DNA of 64,000 nt. Source: a virus. Every line of letters starts with the position of its first letter. The first letter of the stretch is position 1. Under the pieces are notes generated by a model. The model was not told where the DNA came from and searched no databases. It saw only the letters and a program-made list of their open reading frames with translations. The position numbers and the translations under genes were made by a program. The stretch covers positions 103,991 to 167,990 of the IMG/VR virus record IMGVR_UViG_3300032287_002972; one strand, 5' to 3'. Shown piece after piece: positions 18,510 through 37,544 of this stretch.

Positions 18510-19250
18510 TTATTTATTTAAAGTTAGTCTAATCTTTTTTTTACCTTTAGTTAATTCACTAATTTTTCTTCTTGTTTCTTCAGAATGTTTTTTACCTTTA
18601 GCAGATTCACTTAATTTTCTCTTATGTTCTTCTGAAAATATTTTACCTTTAGCAGCTTCACTCATTCTTCTTTTTGTTTCATCAGACATATTCTGTTTTG
18701 CTTCACTCATTCTTCTTTTCGTTTCTTCGGATATGTTCTGTTTAATTTCACACATCTTTTTTCTTGTTTCTTCAGAATGTTTTTTACCTATAAGGGACAA
18801 ACTTATATTTCTCTTATGTTCTTCTGAATGTAATTTACCTTTACGAGATTCACTCATGTTTCTCTTATGTTCTTCAGAAAATGGTTTACGAGAGTTAGAC
18901 TCCTTTTTACTTTCAGGTATGAGTCCAAATATTCTTCCAAACACTTTCCTATCCTCAATAGATTTTCTATTGTTAACAGATTTTATTATCTTATTAATTT
19001 CAAGAACATTTATATTTTCAGTTTCACTTAGAATGGTTTCAGGTATCCCCATTATAAAACATGAAGTATATAGATACATGTCTCTACATTCAACATGTAA
19101 ACTATTATAGGATTTTATTCCAATGTTATGATATTCTTTATATTCTACATCGAAAATATCTTTAATAATTCGTTTAGAAATACTTAATGAAATCACATAT
19201 TCATCCATTGTGGTATTAGATGAAAAATTCATACAATTTAATCCTTTCAT
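18510..19250 (-). CDS. NUMOD3-repeat DNA-binding protein
   Basis: About 6 repeats of (H)SEE(H/T)(K/R)R(K/N)(M/I)SE..KGK. Confidence 0.8.
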
Positions 19251-19453
19251 ATTAATGTGTTTTGTTTTATTTTGAAATGAAATTCTATTTGACTATATAG
19301 TTGGACACGTAATCTATCACGTGATTCAATAAAAAAATGAACACCTATTTGATTACGTACTTCATTATATAAATGAACACCTATTTGATTACGTACTTCA
19401 TTATATAATATATTAATTATTTGGTTACGTATTTGGTCACTAATTATCTTCAT
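19247..19453 (-). CDS. QVxx array protein
   Basis: array member. Confidence 0.7.
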
Positions 19454-19632
19454 ATGTTTTGTTTTACTTTAGTATATAGAGGTACGCGTACATCCATATG
19501 TATTTTAAGTTGTACATCATCATACACTTGGTCACGTACTCTACCAATCACTTGTCTTACAGCTTTTCTAAATAAATTTTCTAATATAGTTTCTTCTAAA
19601 CTATGGTTTATTTTTTCACTTATTGGTCTCAT
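19450..19632 (-). CDS. QVxx array protein
   Basis: array member. Confidence 0.7.
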   Translation of the reverse strand: MRPISEKINHSLEETILENLFRKAVRQVIGRVRDQVYDDVQLKIHMDVRVPLYTKVKQNI

Positions 19633-19649
19633 GTTAATATATTGTTTGG

Positions 19650-19853
19650 TTAATCATTTGAGGTTGATATATATATGTTATTACATAAATCATTATTTAC
19701 TTTAGATGTTACTTGGGTGCGTATTTCATTATATAATTGAACATTTATTTGTTTATGTAATTTAAAATTTACCTCTTGATGTATCCGATTATTTGTTTGG
19801 CCATATAATTTATTACTTATATGTCTACATATTTGTTTATGTGTCTTATTCAT
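19650..19853 (-). CDS. QVxx array protein
   Basis: array member. Confidence 0.7.
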   Translation of the reverse strand: MNKTHKQICRHISNKLYGQTNNRIHQEVNFKLHKQINVQLYNEIRTQVTSKVNNDLCNNIYISTSND

Positions 19854-19960
19854 ACATATTGTTTTAGTTGAAGGGTTATTCGTATAGTTACTTGACTATA
19901 TACGTTATTATGTAATTGAACATTTATTTGTTTACATACTTGATTACTTTCTGATTTCAT
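19850..19960 (-). CDS. QVxx array protein, 36 aa internally deleted copy of 20129-20311
   Basis: MKSESNQVCKQINVQLHNNVYSQVTIRITLQLKQYV, translated by hand. Confidence 0.65.
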   Translation of the reverse strand: MKSESNQVCKQINVQLHNNVYSQVTIRITLQLKQYV

Positions 19961-20132
19961 GAATAATATTATGTTTTAATTGAACATTTACCTCATCACT
20001 TATTTGTGCCCATAATTTATTACTTATTTGAAGATGTAGATGAACAATTACGTTATCAAATACATGTTTATTTAATTGACCACGTATTTGATTTAATAGT
20101 TGGTCACGTACTTGGTTATTTAGTGATTTCAT
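19944..20132 (-). CDS. QVxx array protein
   Basis: array member. Confidence 0.7.
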   Translation of the reverse strand: MKSLNNQVRDQLLNQIRGQLNKHVFDNVIVHLHLQISNKLWAQISDEVNVQLKHNIIHEIRK

Positions 20133-20311
20133 ATTAATCTATTTTGTTTTAGTTGAAGGGTTATTCGTATAGTTATTTGACTATATACGTTATTATGTAA
20201 TTGAACATTTATTTGTTTACGTACATTTATATGTACGTTAGACCTTACTCTCGCATTATTATGAACTTTTTCATTTATTTGTTTACATACTTGATTACTT
20301 ACTGATTTCAT
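20129..20311 (-). CDS. QVxx array protein
   Basis: array member. Confidence 0.7.
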   Translation of the reverse strand: MKSVSNQVCKQINEKVHNNARVRSNVHINVRKQINVQLHNNVYSQITIRITLQLKQNRLI

Positions 20312-20526
20312 ATTTTTTCCCTGAATTTAAATTCTATTTGATTACATACTTGACCATGTATTCGGTCACGACCAACGGGAAGTTTTTCCAGTATTTTATT
20401 ATATAATTTAGTACTTACTCTCGAAGGGATTTTTTTATACATTTCAATATAAAATATTTTAATAAAAAATAGAAAATATATTTTGTAATATACTTGTTTC
20501 ATGTGTTTTCTTATAGTTGTTCCCAT
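20308..20526 (-). CDS. QVxx array protein (start probably later)
   Basis: array member. Confidence 0.6.
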   Translation of the reverse strand: MGTTIRKHMKQVYYKIYFLFFIKIFYIEMYKKIPSRVSTKLYNKILEKLPVGRDRIHGQVCNQIEFKFREKI

Positions 20527-20735
20527 ACTTTATTACTTATTTGTAACCATATTTGACCCCATACTTGGCCACTTACTCGATTAGATACTTGACCACCTAC
20601 TTGTTCATATAATCCGTTATCTACATTATTATTTACTTGTTTATGTAGTTTCTTACGTATTTGATTAGATACCTGTTCATATACTTGGTTATCTACCGGT
20701 CCCATATTAATCTGTTTTGTTTTATTTGTTCCCAT
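20511..20735 (-). CDS. QVxx array protein (start probably later)
   Basis: array member. Confidence 0.65.
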   Translation of the reverse strand: MGTNKTKQINMGPVDNQVYEQVSNQIRKKLHKQVNNNVDNGLYEQVGGQVSNRVSGQVWGQIWLQISNKVWEQL

Positions 20736-20866
20736 ATTTGATTACTAACTCTAATACTTACTCCATCACGTACATCATTATTTACCTGTTTATATAATAG
20801 ATTATGTACTTGATGATTTAATTTAAAACATACTTGTTCATATATTTGGTTTCTTACTTTTTTCAT
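20693..20866 (-). CDS. QVxx array protein (57 aa, not in track)
   Basis: MKKVRNQIYEQV... Confidence 0.65.
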   Translation of the reverse strand: MKKVRNQIYEQVCFKLNHQVHNLLYKQVNNDVRDGVSIRVSNQIWEQIKQNRLIWDR

Positions 20867-21111
20867 ATTACTTTGTTTTGTTTATGTGGATTCGACAATT
20901 GTCTATGTAATTGGTCACTTAATTGTATCCATACTTGTCTATTTACTTGACCCCATATTTGTATTTGTAATTGGTTAGTTACTTGACCCCATATTTGTAT
21001 TTGTACTTGATGACGTACATTAGTATTTACTTGGTCATCAAGTACAAGACCAATTTGATTACGCATCTGAATACGTACTCGTTCATCAATTTTTTTACTT
21101 ACTGATTTCAT
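20863..21111 (-). CDS. QVxx array protein
   Basis: array member. Confidence 0.7.
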   Translation of the reverse strand: MKSVSKKIDERVRIQMRNQIGLVLDDQVNTNVRHQVQIQIWGQVTNQLQIQIWGQVNRQVWIQLSDQLHRQLSNPHKQNKVI

Positions 21112-21304
21112 ATGTTTCTACACTTACTTGGTCATATAATTTATCACTTATCTGATTACTTACTTGGTTATATATTTGTTCAAATGTTTCACCATTTACT
21201 TGATTACCTACTTCAGTATATACTTCACCATATACTTGAATATGAAATCTATTATTTACTTTATCCCATACTTGATTACATATTTTGTTATTTACTGTTT
21301 CCAT
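21095..21304 (-). CDS. QVxx array protein
   Basis: array member. Confidence 0.7.
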   Translation of the reverse strand: METVNNKICNQVWDKVNNRFHIQVYGEVYTEVGNQVNGETFEQIYNQVSNQISDKLYDQVSVETYEISK

Positions 21305-21504
21305 ATGTTTCGTTTTAATTGATTACTTGTTTGCGCACGTATTTGATTAAAAATCTCATAACCTATGTGGCCCATTATTTGTATCCATAATTGTTTATGG
21401 ATATGGTCATATACTTGTTTATCTAATCGACCACGTATATTATATGATACTATCTCACTTATATGAGAACTTACTGACCCCATTTTATTTTCTACTAAGT
21501 TCAT
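21292..21504 (-). CDS. QVxx array protein
   Basis: array member. Confidence 0.7.
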   Translation of the reverse strand: MNLVENKMGSVSSHISEIVSYNIRGRLDKQVYDHIHKQLWIQIMGHIGYEIFNQIRAQTSNQLKRNIWKQ

Positions 21505-21510
21505 ATTAAT

Positions 21511-21693
21511 CTACAATTGTTTTAACAATTCACTGTACATTTTATTCCATATTTGGTTAATTAGATGAAGACGTACTTGATTACCCACTTGATCAGATAC
21601 TTGAACACTTATTTTATCACGTACTTCAATATATGCCTGAACAACTATTTGGTTATGTATTTGTTTAGTCATTTTATTACTTACTGTTTTCAT
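21511..21693 (-). CDS. QVxx array protein
   Basis: array member. Confidence 0.7.
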   Translation of the reverse strand: MKTVSNKMTKQIHNQIVVQAYIEVRDKISVQVSDQVGNQVRLHLINQIWNKMYSELLKQL

Positions 21694-21901
21694 ATGTTTT
21701 TAGGTTTCTTACTTGATTTCTTACTTGGTACTTTAATTCACTATAATTTTGACCATATACTTGATTATCTACCGGTTCTCTAATTTGTTTACTTACTTGA
21801 CTATATATTTGGATACTCACTTGGTCCCATGCTCGATTATTCATTTTTAACCTCAATTGAGTATGTATTTCTTTACGTATTTTTTTTCTTACCGATTTCA
21901 T
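21677..21901 (-). CDS. QVxx array protein
   Basis: array member. Confidence 0.7.
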   Translation of the reverse strand: MKSVRKKIRKEIHTQLRLKMNNRAWDQVSIQIYSQVSKQIREPVDNQVYGQNYSELKYQVRNQVRNLKTYENSK

Positions 21902-22092
21902 ATCTTTCCAAATATTTGATTACTCATTTGTCCCCTTATTTGACTACTTACTTGATTATATACTTGAATAGTAATCTGATTACTTACTTTATCAACTACT
22001 TGGTCACATATTTTATTATTTACGTGACTATATATTTGGATAGTTAAATAATCACGTAATTGTGTCTGTTGATTAAACAATCTAATATTCAT
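21898..22092 (-). CDS. QVxx array protein
   Basis: array member. Confidence 0.7.
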   Translation of the reverse strand: MNIRLFNQQTQLRDYLTIQIYSHVNNKICDQVVDKVSNQITIQVYNQVSSQIRGQMSNQIFGKI

Positions 22093-22274
22093 ATGTTTAT
22101 TTTAGTTTGAAAACCTATTTGTCTACCACGTTCTTGCTCATATAGTTTATCATATACTTGGTCATATATTTTTTTATTTACTTGGTTAAATATTTGGTGA
22201 TATATTTTTTTATTTACTTGACTATATATTTGGATAATTAGTCCATCACGTAGTTGTGTCTGTCCCAGTTTCAT
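22089..22274 (-). CDS. QVxx array protein
   Basis: array member. Confidence 0.7.
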   Translation of the reverse strand: MKLGQTQLRDGLIIQIYSQVNKKIYHQIFNQVNKKIYDQVYDKLYEQERGRQIGFQTKINI

Positions 22275-22435
22275 AACGTTATGTTTTGTTCTATTTGGGA
22301 ATATAATTGATTACGTAATTGAATCCATATTTGTGAACGTAAATTAATATGAAAAGGTTCACTTAACTTATCCTGTATTTTATCATATACATGATAATAT
22401 ATGTGGTAATTAATATCTTTACTTACTTTTTTCAT
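22271..22435 (-). CDS. QVxx array protein (54 aa, not in track)
   Basis: MKKVSKDINY...EQNITL. Confidence 0.65.
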   Translation of the reverse strand: MKKVSKDINYHIYYHVYDKIQDKLSEPFHINLRSQIWIQLRNQLYSQIEQNITL

Positions 22436-22634
22436 AATGATTTATTCGTTCACTTACAATTTCATGTACTGGGTCGACAAATTGAATATCAACTTGTTCA
22501 TTTACTTTTTCGTACACTTCTCCAACGACTATGTTACATATATTAAACGGTACTTCAACTATCATTTGTGCATACATTTGGTCAAATACCCCACGAGATA
22601 TTTTATGATATACTTGTCCATCAATCGATTTCAT
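22419..22634 (-). CDS. QVxx array protein
   Basis: close paralogue of 28155. Confidence 0.7.
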   Translation of the reverse strand: MKSIDGQVYHKISRGVFDQMYAQMIVEVPFNICNIVVGEVYEKVNEQVDIQFVDPVHEIVSERINHYEKSK

Positions 22635-22849
22635 AATGTGTTCTGTTTTATTTCCTTATGTATTTGTACTTGTTCACGTACATTAGAAGATATTTGTACT
22701 TGAACTTGGTCACATATCTCATCATATATTTGGGTTTTTATTTGTTTAAATAATTGAATGTCCAATTGATTAAAAAACACCTCATCATTTAAACGTAAAC
22801 GTATATCAATACGAATTTGTTTACATATTTTATCTTTTACTGATTCCAT
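22631..22849 (-). CDS. QVxx array protein
   Basis: close paralogue of 28395. Confidence 0.7.
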   Translation of the reverse strand: MESVKDKICKQIRIDIRLRLNDEVFFNQLDIQLFKQIKTQIYDEICDQVQVQISSNVREQVQIHKEIKQNTL

Positions 22850-22854
22850 ATGTT

Positions 22855-23106
22855 TTAATTGAATATATAGTTGAGAAACCTATCAATTAAATCCCAAATT
22901 GGTGTCTTTTTTTTCCTTTGAAGTTCTACTTGAATAATAACTGGACTATTCATTTTACCACATACTTGACTCCATACTTGGCTACTCATTATCCTAACTA
23001 TATCATAACGTATATGGTTATATATGTGTCCATGTACTCGTTTATATAATTTATCACGTACTTGATTATCTACATGTTCAAGTATTTGTCCTCTTACTGA
23101 TTTCAT
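22855..23106 (-). CDS. QVxx array protein
   Basis: array member. Confidence 0.7.
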   Translation of the reverse strand: MKSVRGQILEHVDNQVRDKLYKRVHGHIYNHIRYDIVRIMSSQVWSQVCGKMNSPVIIQVELQRKKKTPIWDLIDRFLNYIFN

Positions 23107-23297
23107 ATCGTTTGTTTTATGTGAATATGTACTTGTTCAGATACTTGAGTTTCAACATTATCATATAACCCTTTACTTACTTGTTCACCTACTTGATAAT
23201 ATATATCATTATTCATTTTACTCCATACTTGGTTTTGTAATTGATTATGTACTTGATTACGTACTTGGTCATTTACAATATTTTTTACTTGTTTCAT
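23103..23297 (-). CDS. QVxx array protein
   Basis: array member. Confidence 0.7.
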   Translation of the reverse strand: MKQVKNIVNDQVRNQVHNQLQNQVWSKMNNDIYYQVGEQVSKGLYDNVETQVSEQVHIHIKQTI

Positions 23298-23539
23298 ATG
23301 TTTTCTTTAAATTGAGATTCCACATTTTCTAAAACTATATAAAATTGACCATATACCAACCCACTAATATATTTAAATATTTCAGAGTCTCTGAAATATA
23401 GATCACGTATAGAATATGTATGATGACCTATTTGGGGATATGATCTACTATTTATTAGACGAATTAATTCTTTATCTAATCGTTTGGTTATTTGTTCAGA
23501 TACTCCCTTCATATGTTTCTTTAACTTGCACTTCCACAT
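23294..23539 (-). CDS. QVxx array protein (divergent)
   Basis: array member. Confidence 0.6.
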   Translation of the reverse strand: MWKCKLKKHMKGVSEQITKRLDKELIRLINSRSYPQIGHHTYSIRDLYFRDSEIFKYISGLVYGQFYIVLENVESQFKENI

Positions 23540-23684
23540 TGTTTAATCGATTAATTACCATATCACTAATATGATTGTATAGTTTAATACGTGATTTATT
23601 ATACGCTTCTCTATGTGGTCCATATACTTCCTTACGTACAATTTTATATAATACAATACGTATTTCTTCACTAACTCGTTTCAT
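23496..23684 (-). CDS. QVxx array protein
   Basis: array member. Confidence 0.65.
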   Translation of the reverse strand: MKRVSEEIRIVLYKIVRKEVYGPHREAYNKSRIKLYNHISDMVINRLNNVEVQVKETYEGSI

Positions 23685-23851
23685 ATGTTTTGTTTTAGTT
23701 GTTTAGTTACTTGTTCACGTAATTGATTATCAATTTGACCCCATACTATATTATACATTTGATAACGTACTTCGTCACTTACTGTGCAATATATTCGACC
23801 ATTTATTTGTCCACATAATCTTTCATATACTTCATGATTTATTATCCTCAT
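23681..23851 (-). CDS. QVxx array protein (56 aa, not in track)
   Basis: MRIINHEVYE...KQLKQNI. Confidence 0.65.
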   Translation of the reverse strand: MRIINHEVYERLCGQINGRIYCTVSDEVRYQMYNIVWGQIDNQLREQVTKQLKQNI

Positions 23852-24060
23852 AGTACAATGTAGTCTTTTAGTTGATTATTTATTTGTTCCTGTATTTTAA
23901 GAATCGTACCTACAAATATTTGTTCATTTACTATTTCATATATTTCACTAGACACTTGCTCACTTAATCGGTAACGTACTTGTTCCTTTGTTTGCTCACG
24001 TAATTTACCATGTAATTTATAATATACTTGTTTACTTACTTGTTCACGTACTATCCTCAT
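23848..24060 (-). CDS. QVxx array protein
   Basis: array member. Confidence 0.7.
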   Translation of the reverse strand: MRIVREQVSKQVYYKLHGKLREQTKEQVRYRLSEQVSSEIYEIVNEQIFVGTILKIQEQINNQLKDYIVL

Positions 24061-24257
24061 AATGACATGTTTTGTTTTAGTTGATTAGTTATGTGTTTAT
24101 ACAATTCATCAAATATATCATCACGTAATTGATAGTGTATTTGATTAAGTACTTGTTCACTTGTAAAAATATGTACCTGTAGATATATTTTATCAGGTAC
24201 TTTTTTATACACTTGTTTACATACTTGGTTACTTACTTGAGTGTATATTGTCCTCAT
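24057..24257 (-). CDS. QVxx array protein
   Basis: array member. Confidence 0.7.
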   Translation of the reverse strand: MRTIYTQVSNQVCKQVYKKVPDKIYLQVHIFTSEQVLNQIHYQLRDDIFDELYKHITNQLKQNMSL

Positions 24258-24454
24258 GGTATAACGTTTTCTTCTACTTGGAAACTCATTTGTCTATATA
24301 CTTGTTGACTTACTTGTTCATTTACTCGACTACTTACTTGTTCATTTACTTGTTCATTTACTCGGTTACTTACTTGTTCATTTACTTGTTCACGTAATTG
24401 GTCACGCACTTGTGAACATACTTGGTTACTTACTTGAGTGTATATTAATTTCAT
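24254..24454 (-). CDS. QVxx array protein (purest tetrad repeat)
   Basis: QVSN QVCS QVRD QLRE QVNE QVSN RVNE QVNE QVSS... Confidence 0.75.
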   Translation of the reverse strand: MKLIYTQVSNQVCSQVRDQLREQVNEQVSNRVNEQVNEQVSSRVNEQVSQQVYRQMSFQVEENVIP

Positions 24455-24510
24455 AATACTACGTATTGTTTTAGTTGATTACTTACTTGTTCATTTACTT
24501 GGTCACGTAA
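24451..24510 (-). pseudogene. 3' remnant of an array gene (RDQVNEQVSNQLKQYVVL*)
   Basis: No start codon; matches the 3' end of 24698-24886. Confidence 0.6.
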
Positions 24511-24701
24511 ACGTTTTGTTCTACTTTGAAACTCAGTTGTCCATATACTGGTTGACTTACTTGTTCCCATATTTCATTATTTACTTTTTCCCATACTTCA
24601 TCATGTACTTGTTCATTTACTTGTTCACGTACTTTTCCATATACTTCTTCACGTACTTGTTTACATACTTGGTTACTTACTTGAGTGTATATTAATTTCA
24701 T
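24495..24701 (-). CDS. QVxx array protein
   Basis: array member. Confidence 0.7.
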   Translation of the reverse strand: MKLIYTQVSNQVCKQVREEVYGKVREQVNEQVHDEVWEKVNNEIWEQVSQPVYGQLSFKVEQNVYVTK

Positions 24702-24886
24702 AATACTACGTATTGTTTTAGTTGATTACTTATTTGTTCATTTACTTTTCCATATACTTGTTCACGTACTTGTGCGTGGTAATATAACCGAGATGGTTTA
24801 CGTACTTGTTCACGCACTTTGATATATAATTGTTCATGTACTTGATCATATATTTGTCTACGTATTTGTTCACGTACTATTCTCAT
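24698..24886 (-). CDS. QVxx array protein
   Basis: array member. Confidence 0.7.
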   Translation of the reverse strand: MRIVREQIRRQIYDQVHEQLYIKVREQVRKPSRLYYHAQVREQVYGKVNEQISNQLKQYVVL

Positions 24887-25125
24887 AACGATATGTTTTG
24901 TTTTAGTTGATTACCTATTTGTTCCTGTACTTGATCACGTATTGGACCCCATATATTATCATATAATTGTTTATGTATATGAATACGTATTTGGGTATGT
25001 ACTTGTTCACGTAACTTACGATGTAATTTATAATATATTTTAGACCATATTTCAGTCTGTACTTGGTTACATGATTGATGATATATTATCCACATAATAA
25101 AATGTTTTGTTTTAGTTGAAAACAT
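24883..25125 (-). CDS. QVxx array protein
   Basis: array member. Confidence 0.65.
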   Translation of the reverse strand: MFSTKTKHFIMWIIYHQSCNQVQTEIWSKIYYKLHRKLREQVHTQIRIHIHKQLYDNIWGPIRDQVQEQIGNQLKQNISL

Positions 25126-26140: not shown

Positions 26141-26144
26141 ATAT

Positions 26145-26497: not shown

Positions 26498-26506
26498 ATT
26501 GATGAC

Positions 26507-27468: not shown

Positions 27469-27469
27469 A

Positions 27470-29417: not shown

Positions 29418-29419
29418 AT

Positions 29420-30959: not shown

Positions 30960-30984
30960 ATTAAAATGTTTTTTTTTATTATCA

Positions 30985-31016
30985 CAAATGTAATAATAAA
31001 ATCTTAATTATCCAAA
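30985..31016 (-). promoter_or_regulatory. Bacteroidota-type promoter inside the array
   Basis: minus strand TTTG-N20-TACATTTG. Confidence 0.75.
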
Positions 31017-31032
31017 CTTATTTTTTTTAATT

Positions 31033-31263
31033 TTACAAATGATGTATTGATATGTTTTGTAGTATATTAGTATGTAATTGAACTTCAGTTTGTTTAATTA
31101 AAATTTGGTTTAGTTTGTCATATACTTTTCTACGTACTTGGTCGTCTATTTGAATATCCGATAGAGTACGTGAGTGTTCATCCATGTTTTCGGTCAATTG
31201 GTCATTCAATCGTTCCCATATTTTACTAACATGTTTAAGTAGTTGTTCGTTCACTGTTTTCAT
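31033..31263 (-). CDS. QVxx array protein
   Basis: array member. Confidence 0.7.
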   Translation of the reverse strand: MKTVNEQLLKHVSKIWERLNDQLTENMDEHSRTLSDIQIDDQVRRKVYDKLNQILIKQTEVQLHTNILQNISIHHL

Positions 31264-31480
31264 TTGATATACTTTGTTTTACAATAGATATTTGTCCCCA
31301 TATTTGTTTACGTATTCTATCACGTATTCTGTCGTATAGTTGATCTTCCACTTTGTCATTTATTTGGTCATATAACCTATCACGTATTTGTCTAAATATA
31401 TTATCATGTAGTTTAATATCGACCCGTTTATCTATTCGATTATACACTTGGTCGTATATTACTTTACTCACCGATTTCAT
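31235..31480 (-). CDS. QVxx array protein
   Basis: array member. Confidence 0.7.
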   Translation of the reverse strand: MKSVSKVIYDQVYNRIDKRVDIKLHDNIFRQIRDRLYDQINDKVEDQLYDRIRDRIRKQIWGQISIVKQSISNENSERTTT

Positions 31481-31653
31481 AATTTTATGTTTTCCTTTAC
31501 AGTGTTACTTATTCTGTCAGTTGATCGAAACCACATTTTTTTCGATACTTGATTCCACACATGAGTATATAATTGATTAGCCAATTTATTATATACGTCA
31601 TTAGTTAGTTTATCAATTATCATATCACTTATTTTAATATTTACTCGTTTCAT
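31477..31653 (-). CDS. QVxx array protein (58 aa, not in track; near-duplicate of the 31853 gene)
   Basis: MKRVNIKISDMIIDKLTN...ENIKL. Confidence 0.7.
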   Translation of the reverse strand: MKRVNIKISDMIIDKLTNDVYNKLANQLYTHVWNQVSKKMWFRSTDRISNTVKENIKL

Positions 31654-31856
31654 AATGTTACCCTTTCTTCTATTTCCATTTGTTCTTCTAATGGTATCAT
31701 TAATTGGTCAGATATTTGTAATAGTACTTCACGCTCAATTTGTTCTTCTACTTGAATACGTACTTTGTAATGTACCGAATTATGTACTAAGTTACGAAAT
31801 TTATAACGTATTTGGTCACGAATATTAAGCATAACTTCACTAGACGCCATTTTCAT
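31650..31856 (-). CDS. QVxx array protein
   Basis: array member. Confidence 0.7.
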   Translation of the reverse strand: MKMASSEVMLNIRDQIRYKFRNLVHNSVHYKVRIQVEEQIEREVLLQISDQLMIPLEEQMEIEERVTL

Positions 31857-32065
31857 AATTTTATATTTTCATTTACAGTATTACTTATTCTGTCAGATGG
31901 TCGAAACCACATTTTATTCGATACTTGATTCCACACATGAGTATTTATTTGATTAACCAATTTATTATATACACCATTAGTTAGTTTATCAATTATCATA
32001 TCACTTATTTTAATCTTTACTCGTTCCATAATGATAAATCTAATTGAGTAATTATTTGACCCCAT
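31853..32065 (-). CDS. QVxx array protein
   Basis: array member. Confidence 0.65.
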   Translation of the reverse strand: MGSNNYSIRFIIMERVKIKISDMIIDKLTNGVYNKLVNQINTHVWNQVSNKMWFRPSDRISNTVNENIKL

Positions 32066-32217
32066 ATTTGGTCAGTTATTTGAACACGTACTCGATTTTC
32101 TGTCTCCTTCCATATTTGGTCATATACTTGGACATTCATTACATTATATGCACGTTTAGTTATTTCTCTACGTTCAGGTATTCGTTTATATATTATTTCA
32201 TTTGATACTGATTTCAT
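32017..32217 (-). CDS. QVxx array protein
   Basis: array member. Confidence 0.7.
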   Translation of the reverse strand: MKSVSNEIIYKRIPERREITKRAYNVMNVQVYDQIWKETENRVRVQITDQIWGQIITQLDLSLWNE

Positions 32218-32414
32218 AATGGTAAATTTAGTTTTATTTGAAAAACCCCTAGGTCATGTACATTTCTCCGTAATTGATTATGCGTTCCATTAAACACTTC
32301 CATAACCAAATCACTACTAAATTTATTACTTACATGGTCAAACATACCAATACATACTTTACAATATATATGTTGATATGTTTTATCTCTTACTCGTATT
32401 TTTCTTATTTTCAT
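32214..32414 (-). CDS. QVxx array protein
   Basis: array member. Confidence 0.65.
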   Translation of the reverse strand: MKIRKIRVRDKTYQHIYCKVCIGMFDHVSNKFSSDLVMEVFNGTHNQLRRNVHDLGVFQIKLNLPL

Positions 32415-32617
32415 AGTGATATGTTTCGGGTTACTTGTTGAAATAATTGTTCACTTACCTGACCCCATATAACCTCATTTAATCTTTTACGAACATCCTT
32501 AAGTACTTGACTACTCACTTCATCATACACTCTTTGTTTAAACCTTAGATTATTCCACATTTTCAAATGTATTTCTTCTTGTGTTTTATTTTTTTTTTTC
32601 GTTTCATATTGATCCAT
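32411..32617 (-). CDS. QVxx array protein
   Basis: array member. Confidence 0.65.
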   Translation of the reverse strand: MDQYETKKKNKTQEEIHLKMWNNLRFKQRVYDEVSSQVLKDVRKRLNEVIWGQVSEQLFQQVTRNISL

Positions 32618-32801
32618 TTTGTTTAAAATGAGTTTTCATTTGATGATACATTTGACCTCTTAGTTGGCTAATTCCTCTAACCATTAATTCGTTACGAATT
32701 CGATTATATGTTTCATCACCTATTTGAGTTTCGACTTCAAACAAGAATTGATTTAGTGTTTTGGAACACTTACTAAATATTTTATTCCTTACTCTTTTCA
32801 T
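32604..32801 (-). CDS. QVxx array protein
   Basis: array member. Confidence 0.65.
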   Translation of the reverse strand: MKRVRNKIFSKCSKTLNQFLFEVETQIGDETYNRIRNELMVRGISQLRGQMYHQMKTHFKQNGSI

Positions 32802-32817
32802 GTGTGTCGTTTATTCT

Positions 32818-33009
32818 CTATCTGGAACGTATTTGTATAAGTATGTTACCATAAACTTGATTATGTATTTTAAACCATAATTCAGCAAATAAAGTACCAC
32901 GTACTTGATGATATATTCGTTCACTTAAATGTTTTACTGTTTTATTATGTGACCAATTATACATTTTATAGTGTATTTGTTCATACATTTCTCTACTTAC
33001 AGATTTCAT
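32818..33009 (-). CDS. QVxx array protein
   Basis: array member. Confidence 0.65.
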   Translation of the reverse strand: MKSVSREMYEQIHYKMYNWSHNKTVKHLSERIYHQVRGTLFAELWFKIHNQVYGNILIQIRSR

Positions 33010-33194
33010 ATTTTTATATTTTCAATTAATATATTTCGTAACCCAATAATATGTTCGTGAGTTATTGGAACCACTATATTACTACGTACATGTGCCCATA
33101 CAGCATAACTTAATTTATCGTACACAGTTTTGTGTGCGTCATAAGAATAACATACTTTAACTCGATTATATATTTGTTCTTCAACTGACTTCAT
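33006..33194 (-). CDS. QVxx array protein
   Basis: array member. Confidence 0.65.
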   Translation of the reverse strand: MKSVEEQIYNRVKVCYSYDAHKTVYDKLSYAVWAHVRSNIVVPITHEHIIGLRNILIENIKI

Positions 33195-33379
33195 AATTTT
33201 ATGTTTTCCGCTACAATACCTACCATTTGAATCATTACTTGGTCAAATATTTTTTTCTCTGTTTGGTGACACATATCATTATATACATGTCTATTTATTT
33301 TACCGTATATTTTATTACACATTTTAGATGCACAATAATCATATACTTTTTTTTTAATTAAATATTTCGTATCATTCAT
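33191..33379 (-). CDS. QVxx array protein
   Basis: array member. Confidence 0.65.
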   Translation of the reverse strand: MNDTKYLIKKKVYDYCASKMCNKIYGKINRHVYNDMCHQTEKKIFDQVMIQMVGIVAENIKL

Positions 33380-33573
33380 AATTTAATGTTACTTTTTACT
33401 CGGTTAAAAAATCTACTATGTACTTGATTTGATATTTTACTACCTACTCGTTCATCTACTTGGTCAAATACATTACCACTAATTTTTCCATATACTTGTT
33501 CATGTACTTCGTCATATAATAGAAACCACACTTTATGTACTTGAATACCTAATCTAACACTTACTTGTTTCAT
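33376..33573 (-). CDS. QVxx array protein
   Basis: array member. Confidence 0.7.
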   Translation of the reverse strand: MKQVSVRLGIQVHKVWFLLYDEVHEQVYGKISGNVFDQVDERVGSKISNQVHSRFFNRVKSNIKL

Positions 33574-33770
33574 TATTTTATATTGTTTTTTATATCAATT
33601 GTAATATTAGGGACATTATTGTCAAATAAAACAATGAGTGTATGGAAATATATCTGACCATTTACACCACATAACAATGTGGTGCTCATTTTATTACGAG
33701 AACCACCACTAAAGAACCCTAATTTTTCATTCACTTGAGATTCAATATTTTTCATACTTTCAGATTCCAT
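33573..33770 (-). CDS. array protein (divergent)
   Basis: array member. Confidence 0.6.
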   Translation of the reverse strand: MESESMKNIESQVNEKLGFFSGGSRNKMSTTLLCGVNGQIYFHTLIVLFDNNVPNITIDIKNNIK

Positions 33771-33940
33771 TTTATTTGACGAAATATTTGGTTGTGTAAT
33801 TGGTTATTTATACATATAGTAATATTATTTTCTACATGTATACATACAACAAAAGGCACATGTTTGTTTACAATTGAAATGAGTGGTTTCTGTACTTCAC
33901 TCCATATGATTCTTTGAGGTACTTCTAAAGATGTTATCAT
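33752..33940 (-). CDS. array protein (divergent)
   Basis: first gene after promoter. Confidence 0.6.
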   Translation of the reverse strand: MITSLEVPQRIIWSEVQKPLISIVNKHVPFVVCIHVENNITICINNQLHNQIFRQIKWNLKV

Positions 33941-33963
33941 GATATATTATCGTTTTGTTAAGA

Positions 33964-33995
33964 CAAAGATAGGTCGAATGTTTCACATAACCAAA
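33964..33995 (-). promoter_or_regulatory. Bacteroidota-type promoter inside the array
   Basis: minus strand TTTG-N20-TATCTTTG. Confidence 0.8.
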
Positions 33996-34013
33996 TTAAT
34001 AACTTGAACCTTA

Positions 34014-34214
34014 TCATTTTTTTTGTTGTTCATTCTTAATTTGGTCAAGTATGGGTCTATATAATTGTTCACTTACTTGGGTATTCACGTAAATATGTAC
34101 ATCAGAAACTAACTTACCTTGTATCCTTATAGAGACACTATTAAACAAATCCTCATATATTTTGTGACGTATAGAACTAATATCTTTACGTAGTGATTCG
34201 TTAAAGTTCTTCAT
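34014..34214 (-). CDS. array protein
   Basis: array member. Confidence 0.65.
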   Translation of the reverse strand: MKNFNESLRKDISSIRHKIYEDLFNSVSIRIQGKLVSDVHIYVNTQVSEQLYRPILDQIKNEQQKK

Positions 34215-34282
34215 AATGTTTTATTTACAACCATATTAATAATAACTTGGTTACGTATTTGATTATACAATAAATGATATGA

Positions 34283-34471
34283 CTAATCTTCTTTTTCATA
34301 TTCTTTATATAATGAAACAAGAGATAAATTATAATTCCTATTAGGGATAAATAATTTAGTCTGAATAGTGTCTCTTACATGATAATTAACATTAGAACAT
34401 ATCGCTTTACTGTGAATATACATTATTTTATTCACCAAAATGTCGCTAATTATTTTTTGAAAATTATTCAT
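34283..34471 (-). CDS. array protein (divergent)
   Basis: array member. Confidence 0.6.
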   Translation of the reverse strand: MNNFQKIISDILVNKIMYIHSKAICSNVNYHVRDTIQTKLFIPNRNYNLSLVSLYKEYEKED

Positions 34472-34476
34472 ATTAT

Positions 34477-34713
34477 TTATGGTTTAATATTTTTTAACGA
34501 ATAAATATTTTCACTTTCAACCTTATTTGGGTAAATATTATTCACATCTTTCCATACTGTGTCCATATGTATACTCACGTCAATCATTACATCATTACAA
34601 ACTTTTTCTCTAGATAATAAAATAATATCAGATAGAAATTTATGCATCTTGTTATCAATAACCTTCTCAATCTTTTTCATTTTTTTATCAATCTTGTTTA
34701 TAACACTTTTCAT
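34477..34713 (-). CDS. array protein (divergent)
   Basis: array member. Confidence 0.6.
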   Translation of the reverse strand: MKSVINKIDKKMKKIEKVIDNKMHKFLSDIILLSREKVCNDVMIDVSIHMDTVWKDVNNIYPNKVESENIYSLKNIKP

Positions 34714-34898
34714 GGTTTAACATTTTGTTTTACTTGAACATATGATTTATCACTAACCTGTTCAAATACTTCTCCATGAATATCATCATATATTTGTGTA
34801 TGTAATTTATCAGAAAATTTCTTATCTAATAATTTATGTATATGTCTATACACACTTTTAATTAACCGATTACGTATTTTAGTTCTCAAATTCTTCAT
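34710..34898 (-). CDS. array protein
   Basis: array member. Confidence 0.65.
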   Translation of the reverse strand: MKNLRTKIRNRLIKSVYRHIHKLLDKKFSDKLHTQIYDDIHGEVFEQVSDKSYVQVKQNVKP

Positions 34899-35089
34899 CG
34901 TTCATATTTTTTTCTAAATTTAATATCATAATAAACTCTATTCTTAGTTAAATTGGATATGCTATTAATCACAGTTTTATTATTCACTTTATTATAGATT
35001 TTACTACCCACAGTTTCAAAAAATTCTGCATGGTTAGGTTTAATTTTAAGTCCGATGATATCTGATATTTTAATTCTTATATTATTCAT
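34895..35089 (-). CDS. array protein (divergent)
   Basis: array member. Confidence 0.6.
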   Translation of the reverse strand: MNNIRIKISDIIGLKIKPNHAEFFETVGSKIYNKVNNKTVINSISNLTKNRVYYDIKFRKKYER

Positions 35090-35093
35090 AATG

Positions 35094-35321
35094 TTATTTT
35101 TTTTTTAATAGATTTAATTTATTTGTTTTTAAGAAATAAAAAACATGTAAAATTAACACTATTGTATTAACAACAATTATCGGAAATTCTTGTTTATAAA
35201 GACCATAAAATACCCAAACAACACACGCCATCGCGTTAATAAATCTTATCTTGTTCTCACCTTTTGGGATAAAAGAAATTATTGTTAATGAAGTTGCTAA
35301 CCAACCAATGTAATTAATCAT
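35094..35321 (-). CDS. small 3-TM membrane protein (PQ-loop/YgjV-like)
   Basis: IGWLA..L.IISF, R.IN...C.VWV.YG, P.IV.N. Confidence 0.65.
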   Translation of the reverse strand: MINYIGWLATSLTIISFIPKGENKIRFINAMACVVWVFYGLYKQEFPIIVVNTIVLILHVFYFLKTNKLNLLKKK

Positions 35322-35328
35322 AATTAAT

Positions 35329-35778
35329 TTATATACTGTTAAAAAAATCATTGTTTTTAAAAATCAAGACAATAAAATCTAAGACAGAATCATCTAAAGG
35401 TTTATAGATATCACCTTGTATTGTCTGAAATAATAATATAACACATTCCTTGTCCCCCATTTCAGATAGAACATCGTATGGAACAGTTTCAATACCTTTT
35501 CTTTTTAAAATAACATTTATATCGAAAGAACACTTTGGTTGAATGTAATTTACAGGTATGTCAAGTTTCATCTTAAACAACTGATCACATTTCTCATAGT
35601 CCTCAATTTTTTCAAACTCTTTGATTAATACAGATAACCCTGAATTATATGTAATCATATTAAATTTACTAACACCATCGGTTATATATTTATAGTACAT
35701 ATATTCCACATTATCCATTTCTTTAGATAATGTTAAGTACATTGAATTATTTGTAAATAGTTCATCCATGAAACTCAT
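35329..35778 (-). CDS. hypothetical protein (EDYEKC UVR-like motif)
   Basis: ORF. Confidence 0.65.
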   Translation of the reverse strand: MSFMDELFTNNSMYLTLSKEMDNVEYMYYKYITDGVSKFNMITYNSGLSVLIKEFEKIEDYEKCDQLFKMKLDIPVNYIQPKCSFDINVILKRKGIETVPYDVLSEMGDKECVILLFQTIQGDIYKPLDDSVLDFIVLIFKNNDFFNSI

Positions 35779-36109
35779 TGTTTTCCTTTTTTTTCTTGTA
35801 ATATTGTCGTTGTCTCTCCAATATTTTTTCTCTATTATTTTGATAATATTTTTTTTGTGTATCCTTTTTTTTACTTTTCTTTAAAATAATACTCTCTTTG
35901 TTTTTCTCATAATACTCTTTTTGTCTTTCCAAGAATTTTTCCTTATTCTCCAAATAATATAAACGTCTTTTGTTTTTCAATTTCTCTTTAGAATATTGAG
36001 ACATATTATGATAATACTCTAACCTATCTTTCTTGTGTTTTTCCTTCTCCTCCTCATTCATACTGAGATATCTTTCTCTAAAGTATTGTTTTCTTTCTTC
36101 AGTTTTCAT
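35762..36109 (-). CDS. basic helical repeat protein (YYxxNKE repeats)
   Basis: Low-complexity K/E/Y repeats. Confidence 0.65.
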   Translation of the reverse strand: MKTEERKQYFRERYLSMNEEEKEKHKKDRLEYYHNMSQYSKEKLKNKRRLYYLENKEKFLERQKEYYEKNKESIILKKSKKKDTQKKYYQNNREKILERQRQYYKKKKENNEFHG

Positions 36110-36175
36110 ATTAATCTATTTAAAATAAAAAAAGGGACATATAAAAATTATATGTCCCATGTAAGAAGAAAGATA

Positions 36176-36565
36176 TTAATCAATCACTCTCTTCTTAACA
36201 TTTTCCAAGGGGTCGAACCTTGTTTGAATGTCCACGTAGTATTTACCCGGTGGTACAATCGTGTGACGGTGGTCCTTCTTTGTTGTCACAACAGGTTTAT
36301 CCAATGTGATTCCAAGACCTTGTAACTCGGACTGTAAAGAGTGATTTAAAATACACTCCTCATGTGCTTCGATTACGAAACCACCGTTATCGTACTCGTA
36401 GATATCGTAGTTACCGAACAGAGCGTGGAAGCTACCAGATCTCTCTGACGCTGCAATGTACTGCTTTGTAACTTTTTTAATACCTTTGGGGAGTTCCTTC
36501 ACTTTGAAGAACTGAACATCACCCTGATGAAAACTAACGTTTTCGAACTTTAATTTGTTTTTCAT
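36176..36565 (-). CDS. HQGDV-motif His-rich protein (DUF6745 partner)
   Basis: HQGDV, SERSGSFH, LNH, DH, PPGKY, Q..FDP. Confidence 0.75.
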   Translation of the reverse strand: MKNKLKFENVSFHQGDVQFFKVKELPKGIKKVTKQYIAASERSGSFHALFGNYDIYEYDNGGFVIEAHEECILNHSLQSELQGLGITLDKPVVTTKKDHRHTIVPPGKYYVDIQTRFDPLENVKKRVID

Positions 36566-36590
36566 GAAAAACGGTTTTATATATAAATAT

Positions 36591-37544
36591 TTAGTTTGCT
36601 GAATACCAAGTATAATCTACAGAATCAGGTACATTACTTGGTCTGTGCCATTTAGCACATTCAATAGCATCTGTAAATGTTGGACATGTATCAATCAGAT
36701 ATACTGACTTCGTACTTGGACAAGTAAACTCAATCCAAGCGTATGGTTGATCTAACTCTCCTTTACTATTCTGTAAGAATGAATACTTTGTTTTACTTCT
36801 ATAAATTCTAATCGTCTCTTCGTAACCATTTTCGTGTTTAACATTCTTCTCATCAACAATTTCAGCGTCCAACATTTCTAATAAACCTTGATTACCAAAA
36901 TTCTCTTTAATGATTGTGATGATAGCCGCTCTGATATCCTCATTTGTATTTTTATGGAAACAAATCTTAGCGTTAATCAAAGAATCACATTCGTTAAAAA
37001 TATCTTCTTCGATAAATCTACCATTAACATAATGTTGTCCATAACCATCATCAAATTGAATAGCGTGTCCTGTGGTACAGTGAAGGTCGTTATTAGCGTT
37101 TCTAGAAATCTTGTTTGGATATTTAGACACTAAACAAACTTTATCCATTTGGATTTGAAGATATGAATTAGAAACACACTCACTAATCAGATTAAAATTT
37201 TCTCTGTGTTCTTCCATGAAATCGAAGTTATCAAGAAAATATTCATAAAAAGATAACCACGAAGTGTCGTCAGCGTTTATGTAAGCCGAAAACGGTTCAT
37301 ATACTCTCTTTTCATTACCTAATAACCTGTTAATCTCAACTTGACAAGCCATAGGACTATCTAACAAAAACACTTCAGGTTCATCTAATTCACAGAACTT
37401 ATACAATTTCTTCATTGCAATTTCTGTTTTCTTTTGGTCATGGTTTTTGTAAAACTCATAATTGAAAATTTTAGATAACCACTTTTCCCTTTGGGAATCT
37501 AATTTACCTTCTTGTTCTGGTGTTAATTTCTCAATTTTAGACAT
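36591..37544 (-). CDS. DUF6745-family protein without the central repeat insert
   Basis: IEKLTPEQE, DSP, WLSFYEYF, LHC..G.AI.F.DG, NEDIR, CPST. Confidence 0.75.
   Translation of the reverse strand: MSKIEKLTPEQEGKLDSQREKWLSKIFNYEFYKNHDQKKTEIAMKKLYKFCELDEPEVFLLDSPMACQVEINRLLGNEKRVYEPFSAYINADDTSWLSFYEYFLDNFDFMEEHRENFNLISECVSNSYLQIQMDKVCLVSKYPNKISRNANNDLHCTTGHAIQFDDGYGQHYVNGRFIEEDIFNECDSLINAKICFHKNTNEDIRAAIITIIKENFGNQGLLEMLDAEIVDEKNVKHENGYEETIRIYRSKTKYSFLQNSKGELDQPYAWIEFTCPSTKSVYLIDTCPTFTDAIECAKWHRPSNVPDSVDYTWYSAN

Follow-up and report, generated by a model that had tools for sequence, protein, structure and literature searches.

A tandem array of tetrad-repeat mini-genes near a repeat-less DUF6745 gene in an uncultured phage

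Introduction

Why would a phage carry dozens of small repeat genes close to a gene that lacks the repeat found inside many of its relatives? The question is raised by a window of 64,000 nt (the whole stretch of DNA analysed here; IMG/VR record IMGVR_UViG_3300032287_002972, positions 103,991-167,990 of a 168-kb record) that derives from a large, uncultured phage. A preliminary description had noted about 80 repeat variants near a DUF6745-like gene and its HQGDV partner, and had proposed that the central repeat of the DUF6745 protein was externalised beside a repeat-less scaffold. The variants would then dock onto this scaffold in trans, serve as its recombination donors, or act as decoys of a host protein of the same type. 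Bacterial and prophage sequences often encode DUF6745 proteins, and no mention of the family was found in the literature searched.

The array

The array lies at 19247-35089 on the minus strand, as are all features described below. According to the ORF list and the periodicity, it consists of 78 ATG-started ORFs of 52-100 aa (median 66), in keeping with the number first estimated. The encoded mini-proteins follow a strict four-residue periodicity of the x-x-Q-V type: Gln recurs at lags 4, 8, 12 and 16 at 3.4-4.1 times expectation, and other lags are depleted. In alignment A3, an N-cap, M-K-S-V-S/K, opens each of them; x-x-Q-[V/I/L] tetrads follow, ∼10-14 in number and degenerate, and the end is often a Q-L-K-Q-N-I-x-L type C-cap; strict x-x-Q-[VIL] tetrads hold only 21% of the residues. 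Most mini-proteins are basic (mean net charge +3.5; positive in 63/78), and at 40 of the 77 junctions neighbouring genes share a 4-bp ATGA overlap.

When the family profile was searched against the whole 168-kb record, no members were found outside the array, except for two weak matches (E 4e-4 and 1e-3) to small ORFs of 64 and 82 aa at 37705-38153, upstream of the DUF6745-like gene, which may be degenerate members of the family. The all-against-all comparison gave a median identity of 28% among members and recorded past duplications: the three-gene block at 27852-28625 matches an older copy of itself at 22271-22849, with 54-62% aa identity between corresponding genes, and the youngest pair, 31477-31653 and 31853-32065, is 83% identical at the aa level with one member in between.

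Are these ORFs genes in their own right? Over 52 orthologue pairs with the related locus L022 the pooled dN/dS is 0.62, with several pairs above 1, compared with 0.10-0.12 for neighbouring genes. The free tetrad positions changed in 14-18% of cases versus 8-11% for Q and V (p 0.0015), and array members persist in relatives at 84-98% identity. These mini-genes are real, and weakly constrained. The same comparison reveals that the array (dS 0.115, 91% nt identity) is younger than the region of the DUF6745-like gene (dS 0.30, 82% nt identity); therefore, the two are not tightly co-inherited. The DNA at the junctions between mini-genes is poorly conserved, so that no recombination signal is evident.

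The DUF6745-like core and its empty insertion site

The gene at 36591-37544, hereafter the core, encodes 317 aa and was assigned from its PF20530 match, its homologues and its predicted fold. The Pfam match lies just below the curated cut-off of 27 bits (25.4 bits, E 9.7e-6, model positions 28-138 of 206). A search found 89 homologues; among 71 that are linked to the core protein with E values as low as 1e-207, PF20530 is recognised in 36 (E ≤ 1e-3; best value 2.3e-67). The AF2 model (pLDDT 93.8) has no match among solved structures, and its fold is that of recognised family members: the best structural match in BFVD is a “DUF6745 domain-containing protein” from Microcystis phage LMM01 (E 6.5e-15, probability 1.0), and PF20530 is found in the closest clusters of the ESM Atlas (TM 0.68-0.69). 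The translation and the homologue alignment place all elements of the family architecture in the core, i.e., the N-terminal LTxEQ...W helices, the DSP motif and the W-L-S-F-Y helix, together with the core-region motifs R-N-x-x-N-x-L-H and D-G-Y...Y-V-N-G. The gene is a divergent DUF6745 protein, as had been suspected.

Homologues do carry long tetrad tracts, as the preliminary description had stated, in the stretch that separates the DSP motif from the WLSFYEYF helix. These are of the QVxx, QLxS, SELx or NVxx type, and many homologues have from 17 to more than 60 tetrads at this site. In the window, the site holds instead a non-repetitive linker of 31 residues (codons 65-95; 37260-37352), in line with the ∼30 first described, which forms a loop in the AF2 model. 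The repeat is common in DUF6745 but not universal: other accepted members, such as P0088 and the 269-aa gene of L094, are also without it.

Where present, the insert changes fast, and near-identical cores differ in tetrad number. Homologues P0019 and P0020 (454 and 354 aa), or P0024 and L067 (550 and 598 aa), have identical or near-identical cores, and repeat number varies on such cores in L077, L078 and L081 as well. The insert of P0019 was modelled, with low confidence (pLDDT 47-66), as a helical hairpin that would emerge from the insertion site.

Relation of the array to the DUF6745 insert

Is the array related to this insert, or does it only resemble it in composition? Array profile A3 gave 3039 matches among 1.84 billion proteins. 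Of the best 148, 13 lie outside DUF6745. The other 135 belong to the family and align with the array through their central repeat, and profiles made from the N-terminal or core parts of the window's DUF6745 protein recognise them too; the residue-shuffled DUF6745 controls gave 0/130. The mini-proteins share the four-residue register of the insert as well as its residue preferences: at the two free tetrad positions, the preferences of array and insert are correlated when the registers are aligned (r 0.4-0.57), and the correlation vanishes (r ∼0) when they are shifted. In addition, a search begun with nothing but the repeat led back to a DUF6745 gene (L094). On these sequence comparisons, a chance resemblance is excluded, because the shuffled controls gave no match and because matches in related loci lie almost exclusively on the DUF6745 strand.

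A challenge to this relationship would be convergence of low-complexity helical sequence, with the adjacency being a coincidence. The low share of strict tetrads, the 13 matches outside the family and the occurrence of QVxx tracts beyond DUF6745, in one further protein family at least (P0262, P0284, P0367), speak in its favour. It is strongly disfavoured, and the least credible explanation of all, given the 135 DUF6745 proteins among the best 148 matches, the register-specific preferences, the return of the repeat search to a DUF6745 gene, and the agreement of repeat flavours by lineage in several clades, which is described below.

Recurrence of the split layout

The layout of mini-genes beside a repeat-less core recurs in about seven DUF6745 lineages, and the flavour of the mini-gene repeat (QV, SEL, QL) is that of the in-gene repeat of the same lineage. 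QV arrays are found in the QV clade, and SEL arrays adjoin repeat-less genes of the SEL clade (L026, L028, L039-41, L055, L074); EL-type mini-genes adjoin P0072, a weak QL-type array is present in L021, and QV mini-genes adjoin canonical repeat-less DUF6745 genes in L094, the locus from the repeat-based search, and in L096. The same split arose in several DUF6745 lineages, each with its own repeat flavour. Arrays of very distant lineages have the M-K-x-V start in common; the SEL-type mini-proteins are acidic and those of the window basic, and therefore no single physical property is shared.

Do the array and the internal repeat replace each other? Locus by locus, there are 26 repeat-less cores with an array and 7 without, as opposed to 9 repeat-bearing cores without an array and none with one. 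By lineage, with the lineages delimited by hand, arrays accompany 7 of 12 repeat-less versus 0 of 9 repeat-bearing lineages (one-sided Fisher p 0.007). Phylogenetically independent pairs number only 4-5, and in this underpowered set the array state follows the overall trend in about 2 and runs counter to it in none (sign test not significant). The repeat-less L019, L032, L045 and L079 have no array within 10 kb, and all 28 cores of the clade of the window are empty. Array content differs greatly between phages with 75-80% identical cores, and the array is upstream of the core gene in L004, L006 and L007 and downstream elsewhere. The externalisation first proposed thus gains support from the 135 matches, the register preferences, the seven lineages and this complementarity; neither a likeness in composition only nor arrays independent of the DUF6745 and HQGDV genes came to light.

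The partner gene and the intervening genes

The partner gene (36176-36565, 129 aa) bears the HQGDV motif anticipated for it and belongs to no known family: it has no match in Pfam or PHROG, and its ESM Atlas matches are viral hypothetical clusters only. In most relatives it is found after the DUF6745 gene, and it is conserved behind repeat-less and repeat-bearing genes alike (59-81% identity). Just after it, a pattern scan found a terminator-like hairpin at 36134-36158 (11-bp stem and T run; consensus match only) that would close a two-gene unit of DUF6745 and partner.

Three further genes in the ORF list, at 35094-36109, precede the array: they encode a 115-aa K/E/Y-rich protein, a 149-aa protein and an 85-aa membrane protein. 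They have no family match in Pfam or PHROG and nothing ties them to the system of core and array; those of 115 and 149 aa are also present in L022. The terminator and these unrelated genes separate the core-partner pair from the array, an observation that runs against a library of docking modules.

Predicted docking of a mini-protein on the core

Of the three mechanisms first suggested for the array, only docking in trans found support, and it stays a prediction. The complex model of the core and one mini-protein, i.e., one of the 78 array members, scored 0.74 (0.73-0.78 in three runs) and the best control 0.00; among 80 solved complexes 58 score this high, and among 110 mismatched pairs 2 do, a calibration only roughly valid with user alignments. 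At least 94% of contacts are common to the runs, and the partner has a pLDDT of at least 82. The predicted interface joins the first 16 residues of the mini-protein to core residues 47-53, 80-103 and 129-136, linker residues 80-92 among them, and conservation at its residues barely exceeds that at the remaining ones (0.40 vs 0.32, p 0.07). Since the core has no solved relative, the result does not stem from a solved complex learned by the tool, although the packing of in-cis DUF6745 repeats may have been learned. The model supports, rather than proves, that the mini-protein docks around the insertion site.

Comparison with known systems

The nearest relatives of the system are the repeat-bearing DUF6745 proteins (PF20530; phrog_31813), such as P0019, gp174 of Microcystis phage Ma-LMM01 and gp38 of the Mycobacterium prophage prophiGD102-1, all annotated as hypothetical. 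They share with the window the N-terminal helical domain (LTPEQE...W), the DSP motif, the WLSFYEYF helix and the core; their inserts share the tetrad register and residue preferences of the mini-proteins, and those of the same subfamily also have the HQGDV partner gene. They differ in that their repeats follow a very regular pattern and change mostly in number, whereas in the window the repeat is outside the core gene, as 78 separate and far more diversified genes. Cyanobacterial DUF6745-LRR fusions (ESM Atlas cluster, 72 members, 682 aa) combine the same core fold (TM 0.69) with a repeat-type protein-binding module, which fits the idea of a core carrying exchangeable recognition repeats; unlike the window, they are bacterial, have the leucine-rich repeat in cis and are without mini-genes.

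In lamprey VLR, Borrelia vlsE and Neisseria pilE/pilS, silent fragment cassettes are copied into an expression site. The window resembles these systems in having an incomplete gene, from which the central repeat modules are missing, beside many diverged copies of the module. In contrast, all 78 of its units are complete ATG-to-stop ORFs under selection, no filled scaffold is seen, and diversity would come from non-covalent assembly and not from DNA rearrangement.

The only repeat protein of such general design with a tested role is gp54 of mycobacteriophage Tweety (grouped with Che8 gp57 and PMC gp51), which tunes counter-defence against Phrann gp29/gp30 through the number of its tetrapeptide repeats (PMC2884959; PMC9262239). 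In this phage accessory protein, unique N- and C-terminal parts flank four-residue repeats with two constant and two variable positions, and copy number varies between near-identical genes, as it does in repeat-bearing DUF6745 homologues but not in the repeat-less gene of the window. Its repeat is of the A-A-x-x type, and it has neither a mini-gene array nor an HQGDV partner. Homology between gp54 (L093 645-1769) and DUF6745 is ruled out (hhalign probability against the DUF6745 alignment 0.1%), and gp54 has no match in Pfam. By analogy, its likeness to the window system would be functional and not homologous. No DUF6745 phage was found with infection data on neutralising host or prophage defence.

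Explanations for the array

What, then, is the array? We consider it somewhat probable that it is a library of free-standing, diversified helical modules made of tetrad repeats, the same module that is the internal insert of many DUF6745 proteins, with both gene fission and binding in trans being part of this reading. The in-gene repeat would have been lost from the core gene and survived as separate genes; duplication, both in tandem and in blocks, would have multiplied these before they diverged, i.e., fission followed by birth-and-death evolution. Each mini-protein would use its conserved M-K-x-V start and its helical body to bind non-covalently to the conserved N-terminal/central face of the core, around the old insertion loop. 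As many mini-proteins would bind one core in this manner, one core and its HQGDV partner could form many alternative complexes with different exposed surfaces. Several observations weigh against this reading: the array is younger than the core region, a terminator and three genes lie between them, some repeat-less cores have no array within 10 kb, the predicted interface is barely better conserved than the rest, and the mini-proteins of the window and those of the SEL type differ in charge.

Or, do the mini-proteins act without the core? They might be homologous to the insert and yet compete for, block or mimic the target of the repeat, as decoys or inhibitors, possibly of DUF6745-type proteins of the host or of rival phages, or they might self-assemble. 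The different divergence histories of array and core region with respect to L022, the terminator and three genes that lie between them, the variable position of the array relative to the core, the repeat-less cores without a nearby array, and the abundance of DUF6745 in bacterial and prophage sequence all suit this alternative, which we hold to be unlikely though far from negligible. It must contend with the complex model, which puts the mini-protein on the conserved surface of the core with controls at 0.00, with the M-K-x-V start common to very distant lineages, and with the occurrence of arrays only beside repeat-less and never beside repeat-bearing cores, which is not required of a freely acting decoy. 

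Much less probable is that unstable 12-bp repeat DNA gave rise to the array as a by-product with no function, or that the array is a selfishly expanding element, with ORFs open by chance or by recent origin. The weak constraint, with several pairs of dN/dS above 1, the divergence to a median identity of 28% and the great differences in content between phages with similar cores are what it would lead one to expect; it is opposed by the 78 uninterrupted frames, all on the same strand, whose starts are conserved and whose junctions are coupled, the pooled dN/dS below 1, the better preservation of frame positions, the persistence of members in relatives and the independent origin of the same layout in several lineages. 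The donor role raised at the outset is disfavoured and, to our judgement, very improbable: an incomplete gene with dozens of related units close by, and an in-gene repeat whose length shifts quickly between near-identical genes, would suit a cassette bank copied by recombination into the empty site, with filled scaffolds in individual phage genomes. However, every unit is a complete ORF with ATG and stop, usually with the ATGA overlap, and is constrained as an individual gene with orthologues in relatives; an array accompanies a repeat-bearing core in none of 9 loci, the 28 cores of the clade are all empty, and the junction DNA gives no evident recombination signal.

Returning to the library of modules, what might its complexes do? 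Most speculatively, and by analogy with the repeat number of Tweety gp54, they may act in host take-over or counter-defence, with repeat variation tuning the recognition of a variable host target. In its fullest form, which we put forward as possible but doubtful, phages would have repeatedly turned a fast-changing internal repeat into a library of interchangeable subunits, in which one core and its partner would bind any of up to 78 mini-proteins via the M-K-x-V anchor for the combinatorial recognition of variable host targets, e.g., defence systems. If this is true, the system would be a non-covalent, protein-level counterpart of cassette-based receptor diversity.

The mini-gene array

The array occupies 19247-35089 on the minus strand and consists of 78 ATG-started open reading frames of 52-100 codons (median 66 amino acids), with ATGA overlaps at 40 of the 77 junctions. 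Since the frame shifts between successive members at the ATGA overlaps and each member has a conserved start of its own, neither a variant genetic code nor one giant reading frame can explain the array. A typical member begins with M-K-S-V-(S/K), continues with roughly twelve degenerate x-x-Q-[V/I/L] tetrads, and frequently ends in Q-L-K-Q-N-I-x-L. The periodicity is pronounced, as glutamine recurs at lags of 4, 8, 12 and 16 residues at 3.4-4.1 times expectation, with the other lags depleted, and V/I/L at the same lags at ∼2.2 times expectation. The proteins are mainly basic (mean net charge +3.5) and strongly diverged, their median pairwise identity being 28%; one young pair (83% identity) and one older three-gene block are duplications. 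When the family profile was run against the 168-kb record, the only matches beyond the array were two weak ones at 37705-38153.

Shine-Dalgarno motifs are scarce, an SD-like 4-mer being found in the 20 nt upstream of the start in 4 of the 78 mini-genes, and the leaders are A-rich. Because of this, the K-Q-N-I C-cap may partly serve the initiation of the next gene, so that its conservation may in part reflect an initiation region rather than protein function. Such leaders would be in keeping with a host that can dispense with SD pairing, for example a member of the Bacteroidota. In the junction DNA, no conserved stretch able to act as a recombination site was found.

With regard to the setting, the window is the final 64 kb of an IMG/VR record with an estimated completeness of ∼50%. 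Its G+C content is ∼28%, and the coding strand switches near 18 kb. The neighbors include a UvrD-type helicase, a thymidylate synthase, an RNA ligase, a C5 DNA methylase, a DUF4326 protein and a NUMOD3 protein, which is typical of a replication and accessory region of a large lytic phage. The NUMOD3 protein (246 aa, 18510-19250, minus strand) comes directly after the array and carries four NUMOD3 motifs (E 9e-19); its matches to homing-endonuclease PHROGs are confined to this DNA-binding part, and a nuclease domain was not detected. At 14669-14746 (plus strand), ARAGORN calls one tRNA-like gene with no identity assigned; its anticodon loop is read as four bases (agat). The region has no excess of promoter-like sites (139 observed vs 161 expected).

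The DUF6745 core and its partner

Upstream of the array lies a gene (36591-37544, minus strand) whose 317-aa product, here called the core, matches the Pfam family DUF6745 with E 9.7e-6 and 25.4 bits, below the cut-off of 27; the family is matched by 36 of 71 homologues of the core, the best at 2.3e-67. The AF2 model is confident (pLDDT 93.8). Its nearest structure in BFVD is the DUF6745 protein of Microcystis phage LMM01 (E 6.5e-15), and in the ESM Atlas the nearest are DUF6745 proteins (TM 0.68-0.69), a cyanobacterial fusion with leucine-rich repeats among them. Against solved structures, Foldseek returned no match at E ≤ 0.001, and the best result of a wide VIA search (Z 5.1) was a generic beta-meander covering the C-terminal domain only; the fold comparison gave no hint of function. 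The core gene found no match, as DNA or protein, in the phage GenBank collection, and neither did scans of IMG/VR with two single proteins, P0042 and P0032. A 25-sequence alignment contained no segment of sufficient conservation to serve as a query.

The HQGDV protein (129 aa, 36176-36565, minus strand) has its gene after that of the DUF6745 protein in most relatives, repeat-bearing and repeat-less alike. It belongs to no Pfam or PHROG family, and the ESM Atlas gives viral hypothetical clusters only. A strong terminator-like hairpin (36158-36134, minus strand) stands after its gene. The next gene (35762-36109, minus strand) encodes a 115-aa protein rich in K, E and Y, with a recurring motif of the R-x-x-Y-Y-x-x-N-K-E-K type and without a family match; it is found in several relatives at varying positions.

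In the cultured Microcystis phage Ma-LMM01 (L095), the DUF6745 gene is gp174 (2407-3543), which is surrounded by genes of replication and repair, namely those for a DNA polymerase (gp178), a uracil-DNA glycosylase (gp173) and a clamp loader (gp169). The transcriptome paper on this phage does not name gp174 and classes its neighbors as “middle”; since 162 genes of the phage share that class, this is uninformative for gp174.

A repeat within the gene, and its likeness to the array

The preliminary description stated that many homologues carry a long tetrad tract between the DSP and WLSFYEYF motifs, and this is the case: homologues of 430-600 aa have QVxx, QLxS, SELx or NVxx repeats there. The core of the window has 31 non-repetitive residues at this site (37260-37352), as had been described. 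Cores that are nearly identical can be tens of tetrads apart, as in P0019 (454 aa) vs P0020 (354 aa) and P0024 (550 aa) vs the protein of L067 (598 aa), so that the length of the in-gene repeat is hypervariable. The AF2 model of P0019 shows the repeat as a long helical hairpin that exits the core at the insertion loop, predicted with low confidence (pLDDT 47-66).

Are the array members related to this repeat, or do they share only its composition? The array profile, run exhaustively against 1.84 billion representative proteins, gave 3039 matches; 135 of the 148 strongest are matched as well by profiles made from non-repeat parts of the window's DUF6745 protein. With shuffled residues, none of 130 DUF6745 proteins was matched. 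Moreover, the free tetrad positions of the array and of the DUF6745 repeats both prefer R/W/Y/S and then D/N/E in the same register, with a correlation of r 0.4-0.57 in register and ∼0 out of register. The similarity, which had been proposed from the sequence, thus exceeds composition.

Tetrad tracts are not exclusive to DUF6745, as 13 of the best 148 matches lie outside it. P0262, P0284 and P0367 form a separate small family of ∼260-290 aa that starts M-E-T-L...G-Y-K-Y-L and bears the same QVxx tract inserted within the protein, so that the tetrad module also occurs outside DUF6745 cores. Cyanobacterial proteins of ∼680 aa (an ESM Atlas cluster), in which the DUF6745 core is fused to leucine-rich repeats, are a further case of this core bearing a repeat-type binding module.

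Arrays accompany repeat-less cores

Close relatives, with cores 74-80% identical, are all repeat-less and all have arrays on the same strand, upstream or downstream. Scans of IMG/VR and JGI metagenome contigs with a broader alignment added 70 loci. In a tree of the cores, computed without the insert columns, three clades are well supported; their in-gene repeats are of the QV, QL and SEL types, respectively, and the flavor of the arrays tracks the clade: the QV clade has QV arrays, and in the SEL clade locus L026 has ∼22 SEL mini-genes between its repeat-less core and the HQGDV partner. In L026 (11491-15454), adjacent mini-genes overlap by 8-14 nt, so that the last codons of one gene and the M-K-N-I-R-E with which its successor starts lie in the same DNA. 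Further SEL mini-genes flank the core on both sides in L028 and in L039-41, L055, L065, L071, L073 and L074; P0072 is adjoined by EL-type mini-genes, and L021 has a weak QL-type array. The canonical repeat-less P0088 is followed by ∼14 mini-genes starting M-(K/T)-S-V-K. Matches to the array profile lie almost solely on the DUF6745 strand.

Where the context was usable, 26 loci were repeat-less with an array, 7 repeat-less without one, 9 repeat-bearing without one and none repeat-bearing with one. By lineages, delimited by hand, arrays occur in 7 of 12 repeat-less vs 0 of 9 repeat-bearing ones (p 0.007); phylogenetically independent contrasts number only 4-5, none in the wrong direction, which is too few for significance. 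The expected co-occurrence of repeat-less DUF6745 genes and arrays is supported.

A reverse test began from the repeat alone, by seeking short proteins that resemble the repeat of P0024. It led to a 109-aa protein on L094, a contig of 47% G+C with a canonical repeat-less DUF6745 gene (269 aa) and, within 3.4 kb, five or more QV mini-genes of great regularity. This repeat-led search, which was non-exhaustive, found no array apart from a DUF6745 gene. An alignment of SEL mini-genes searched back against IMG/VR recovered the source contigs only, and a word-indexed search with the array alignment recovered orthologues from close relatives only.

Evolution of the mini-genes

Phages with cores 75-80% identical share no clear one-to-one orthologues in their arrays, which indicates fast turnover. 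For this reason dN/dS was determined against the closer relative L022, in which the proximal array is collinear with that of the window at ∼91% nucleotide identity. Over 52 orthologue pairs, the pooled dN is 0.070 and dS 0.115, a ratio of 0.62, while the HQGDV gene and a 149-aa gene have ratios of 0.10-0.12. Substitutions affect 14-18% of free positions vs 8% of Q and 11% of V (p 0.0015). Together, the ratio and this bias mark the members as proteins under weak constraint, in which the frame is kept and the faces vary.

Measured against L022, the array is more recent than the core region (dS 0.115 vs 0.30; nucleotide identity 91% vs 82%), the block of DUF6745, partner, p115 and p149 being 82% identical to L022 with dS from 0.30 to above 1. 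The distal array (∼19247-27500) is rearranged. This mosaic divergence suggests recent swapping of array segments between phages.

A proposed route from one repeat to many genes

How could a repeat within a gene give rise to an array? The hairpin would have been lost from the core gene and would have persisted as separate genes; these would have multiplied by tandem and block duplication and then diverged, and their products would re-attach in trans to a conserved surface of the core. On a tentative rooting of the tree, fission is more parsimonious than fusion because the repeat-bearing forms are basal and widespread and the array-bearing forms nested.

Docking in trans, one of three roles first proposed for the array, is supported by a controlled complex prediction for one member (25289-25489), in which an alignment of cores (A5) was combined with one of array members (A3). 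The complex scored 0.74 (runs 0.73-0.78) vs 0.00 in all three controls; of 80 solved complexes, 58 attain this mark, and of 110 mismatched pairs 2 do so, a calibration that is approximate for user-made alignments. The runs share at least 94% of contacts, and the partner pLDDT is at least 82. On the core, the predicted interface comprises the conserved L-Y-x-F-C-x-L segment (47-53), residues 80-103 with the old insertion loop and the WLSFY helix, and residues 129-136, the I-Q strand. On the mini-protein, the surest predicted contacts are made by the first 16 residues, and arrays from very distant lineages have the M-K-x-V start as well. The model supports binding of this member to the core. It may, nevertheless, echo cis packing learned from repeat-bearing relatives, and conservation at the predicted interface exceeds that of the remaining residues only slightly (p 0.07). 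If re-attachment does occur, one core-partner pair would be able to carry many different exposed helices.

The other two proposed roles fare differently. Were the array a store of cassettes recombined into the core gene, scaffolds filled from it would be expected, and none is found among the 28 cores of the window's clade; the units are, in addition, complete and selected open reading frames, so that the role of donor is disfavored. A further rival to docking is that the mini-proteins may serve as decoys of a host DUF6745-type protein. As for known systems, repeat variation in Tweety gp54 tunes counter-defense (PMC9262239, PMC2884959); gp54 is not homologous to DUF6745, and the likeness is one of analogy only, in the variation of a repeat.

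Outlook

The DUF6745 family is widespread in phages and prophages. Its members in cultured phages are annotated as hypothetical, and a literature search found no paper mentioning DUF6745 or PF20530. The split form physically parts the core from the repeat, which opens the family to experiment, as core and mini-proteins can be made separately, assayed for binding, exchanged and deleted.

The split layout appears to have evolved several times, and it would be a clean natural case in which a gene splits and the detached part is then massively amplified in tandem: 17-60 tetrads within one gene would have become 78 genes, which span 16 kb or ∼10% of the 168-kb assembly. Mini-gene arrays that annotation pipelines call hypothetical or overlook would likewise be accounted for. 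If the docking model is true, these phages have an undescribed viral route to many variants of one complex, a variety that needs neither DNA rearrangement nor mutagenic reverse transcription.
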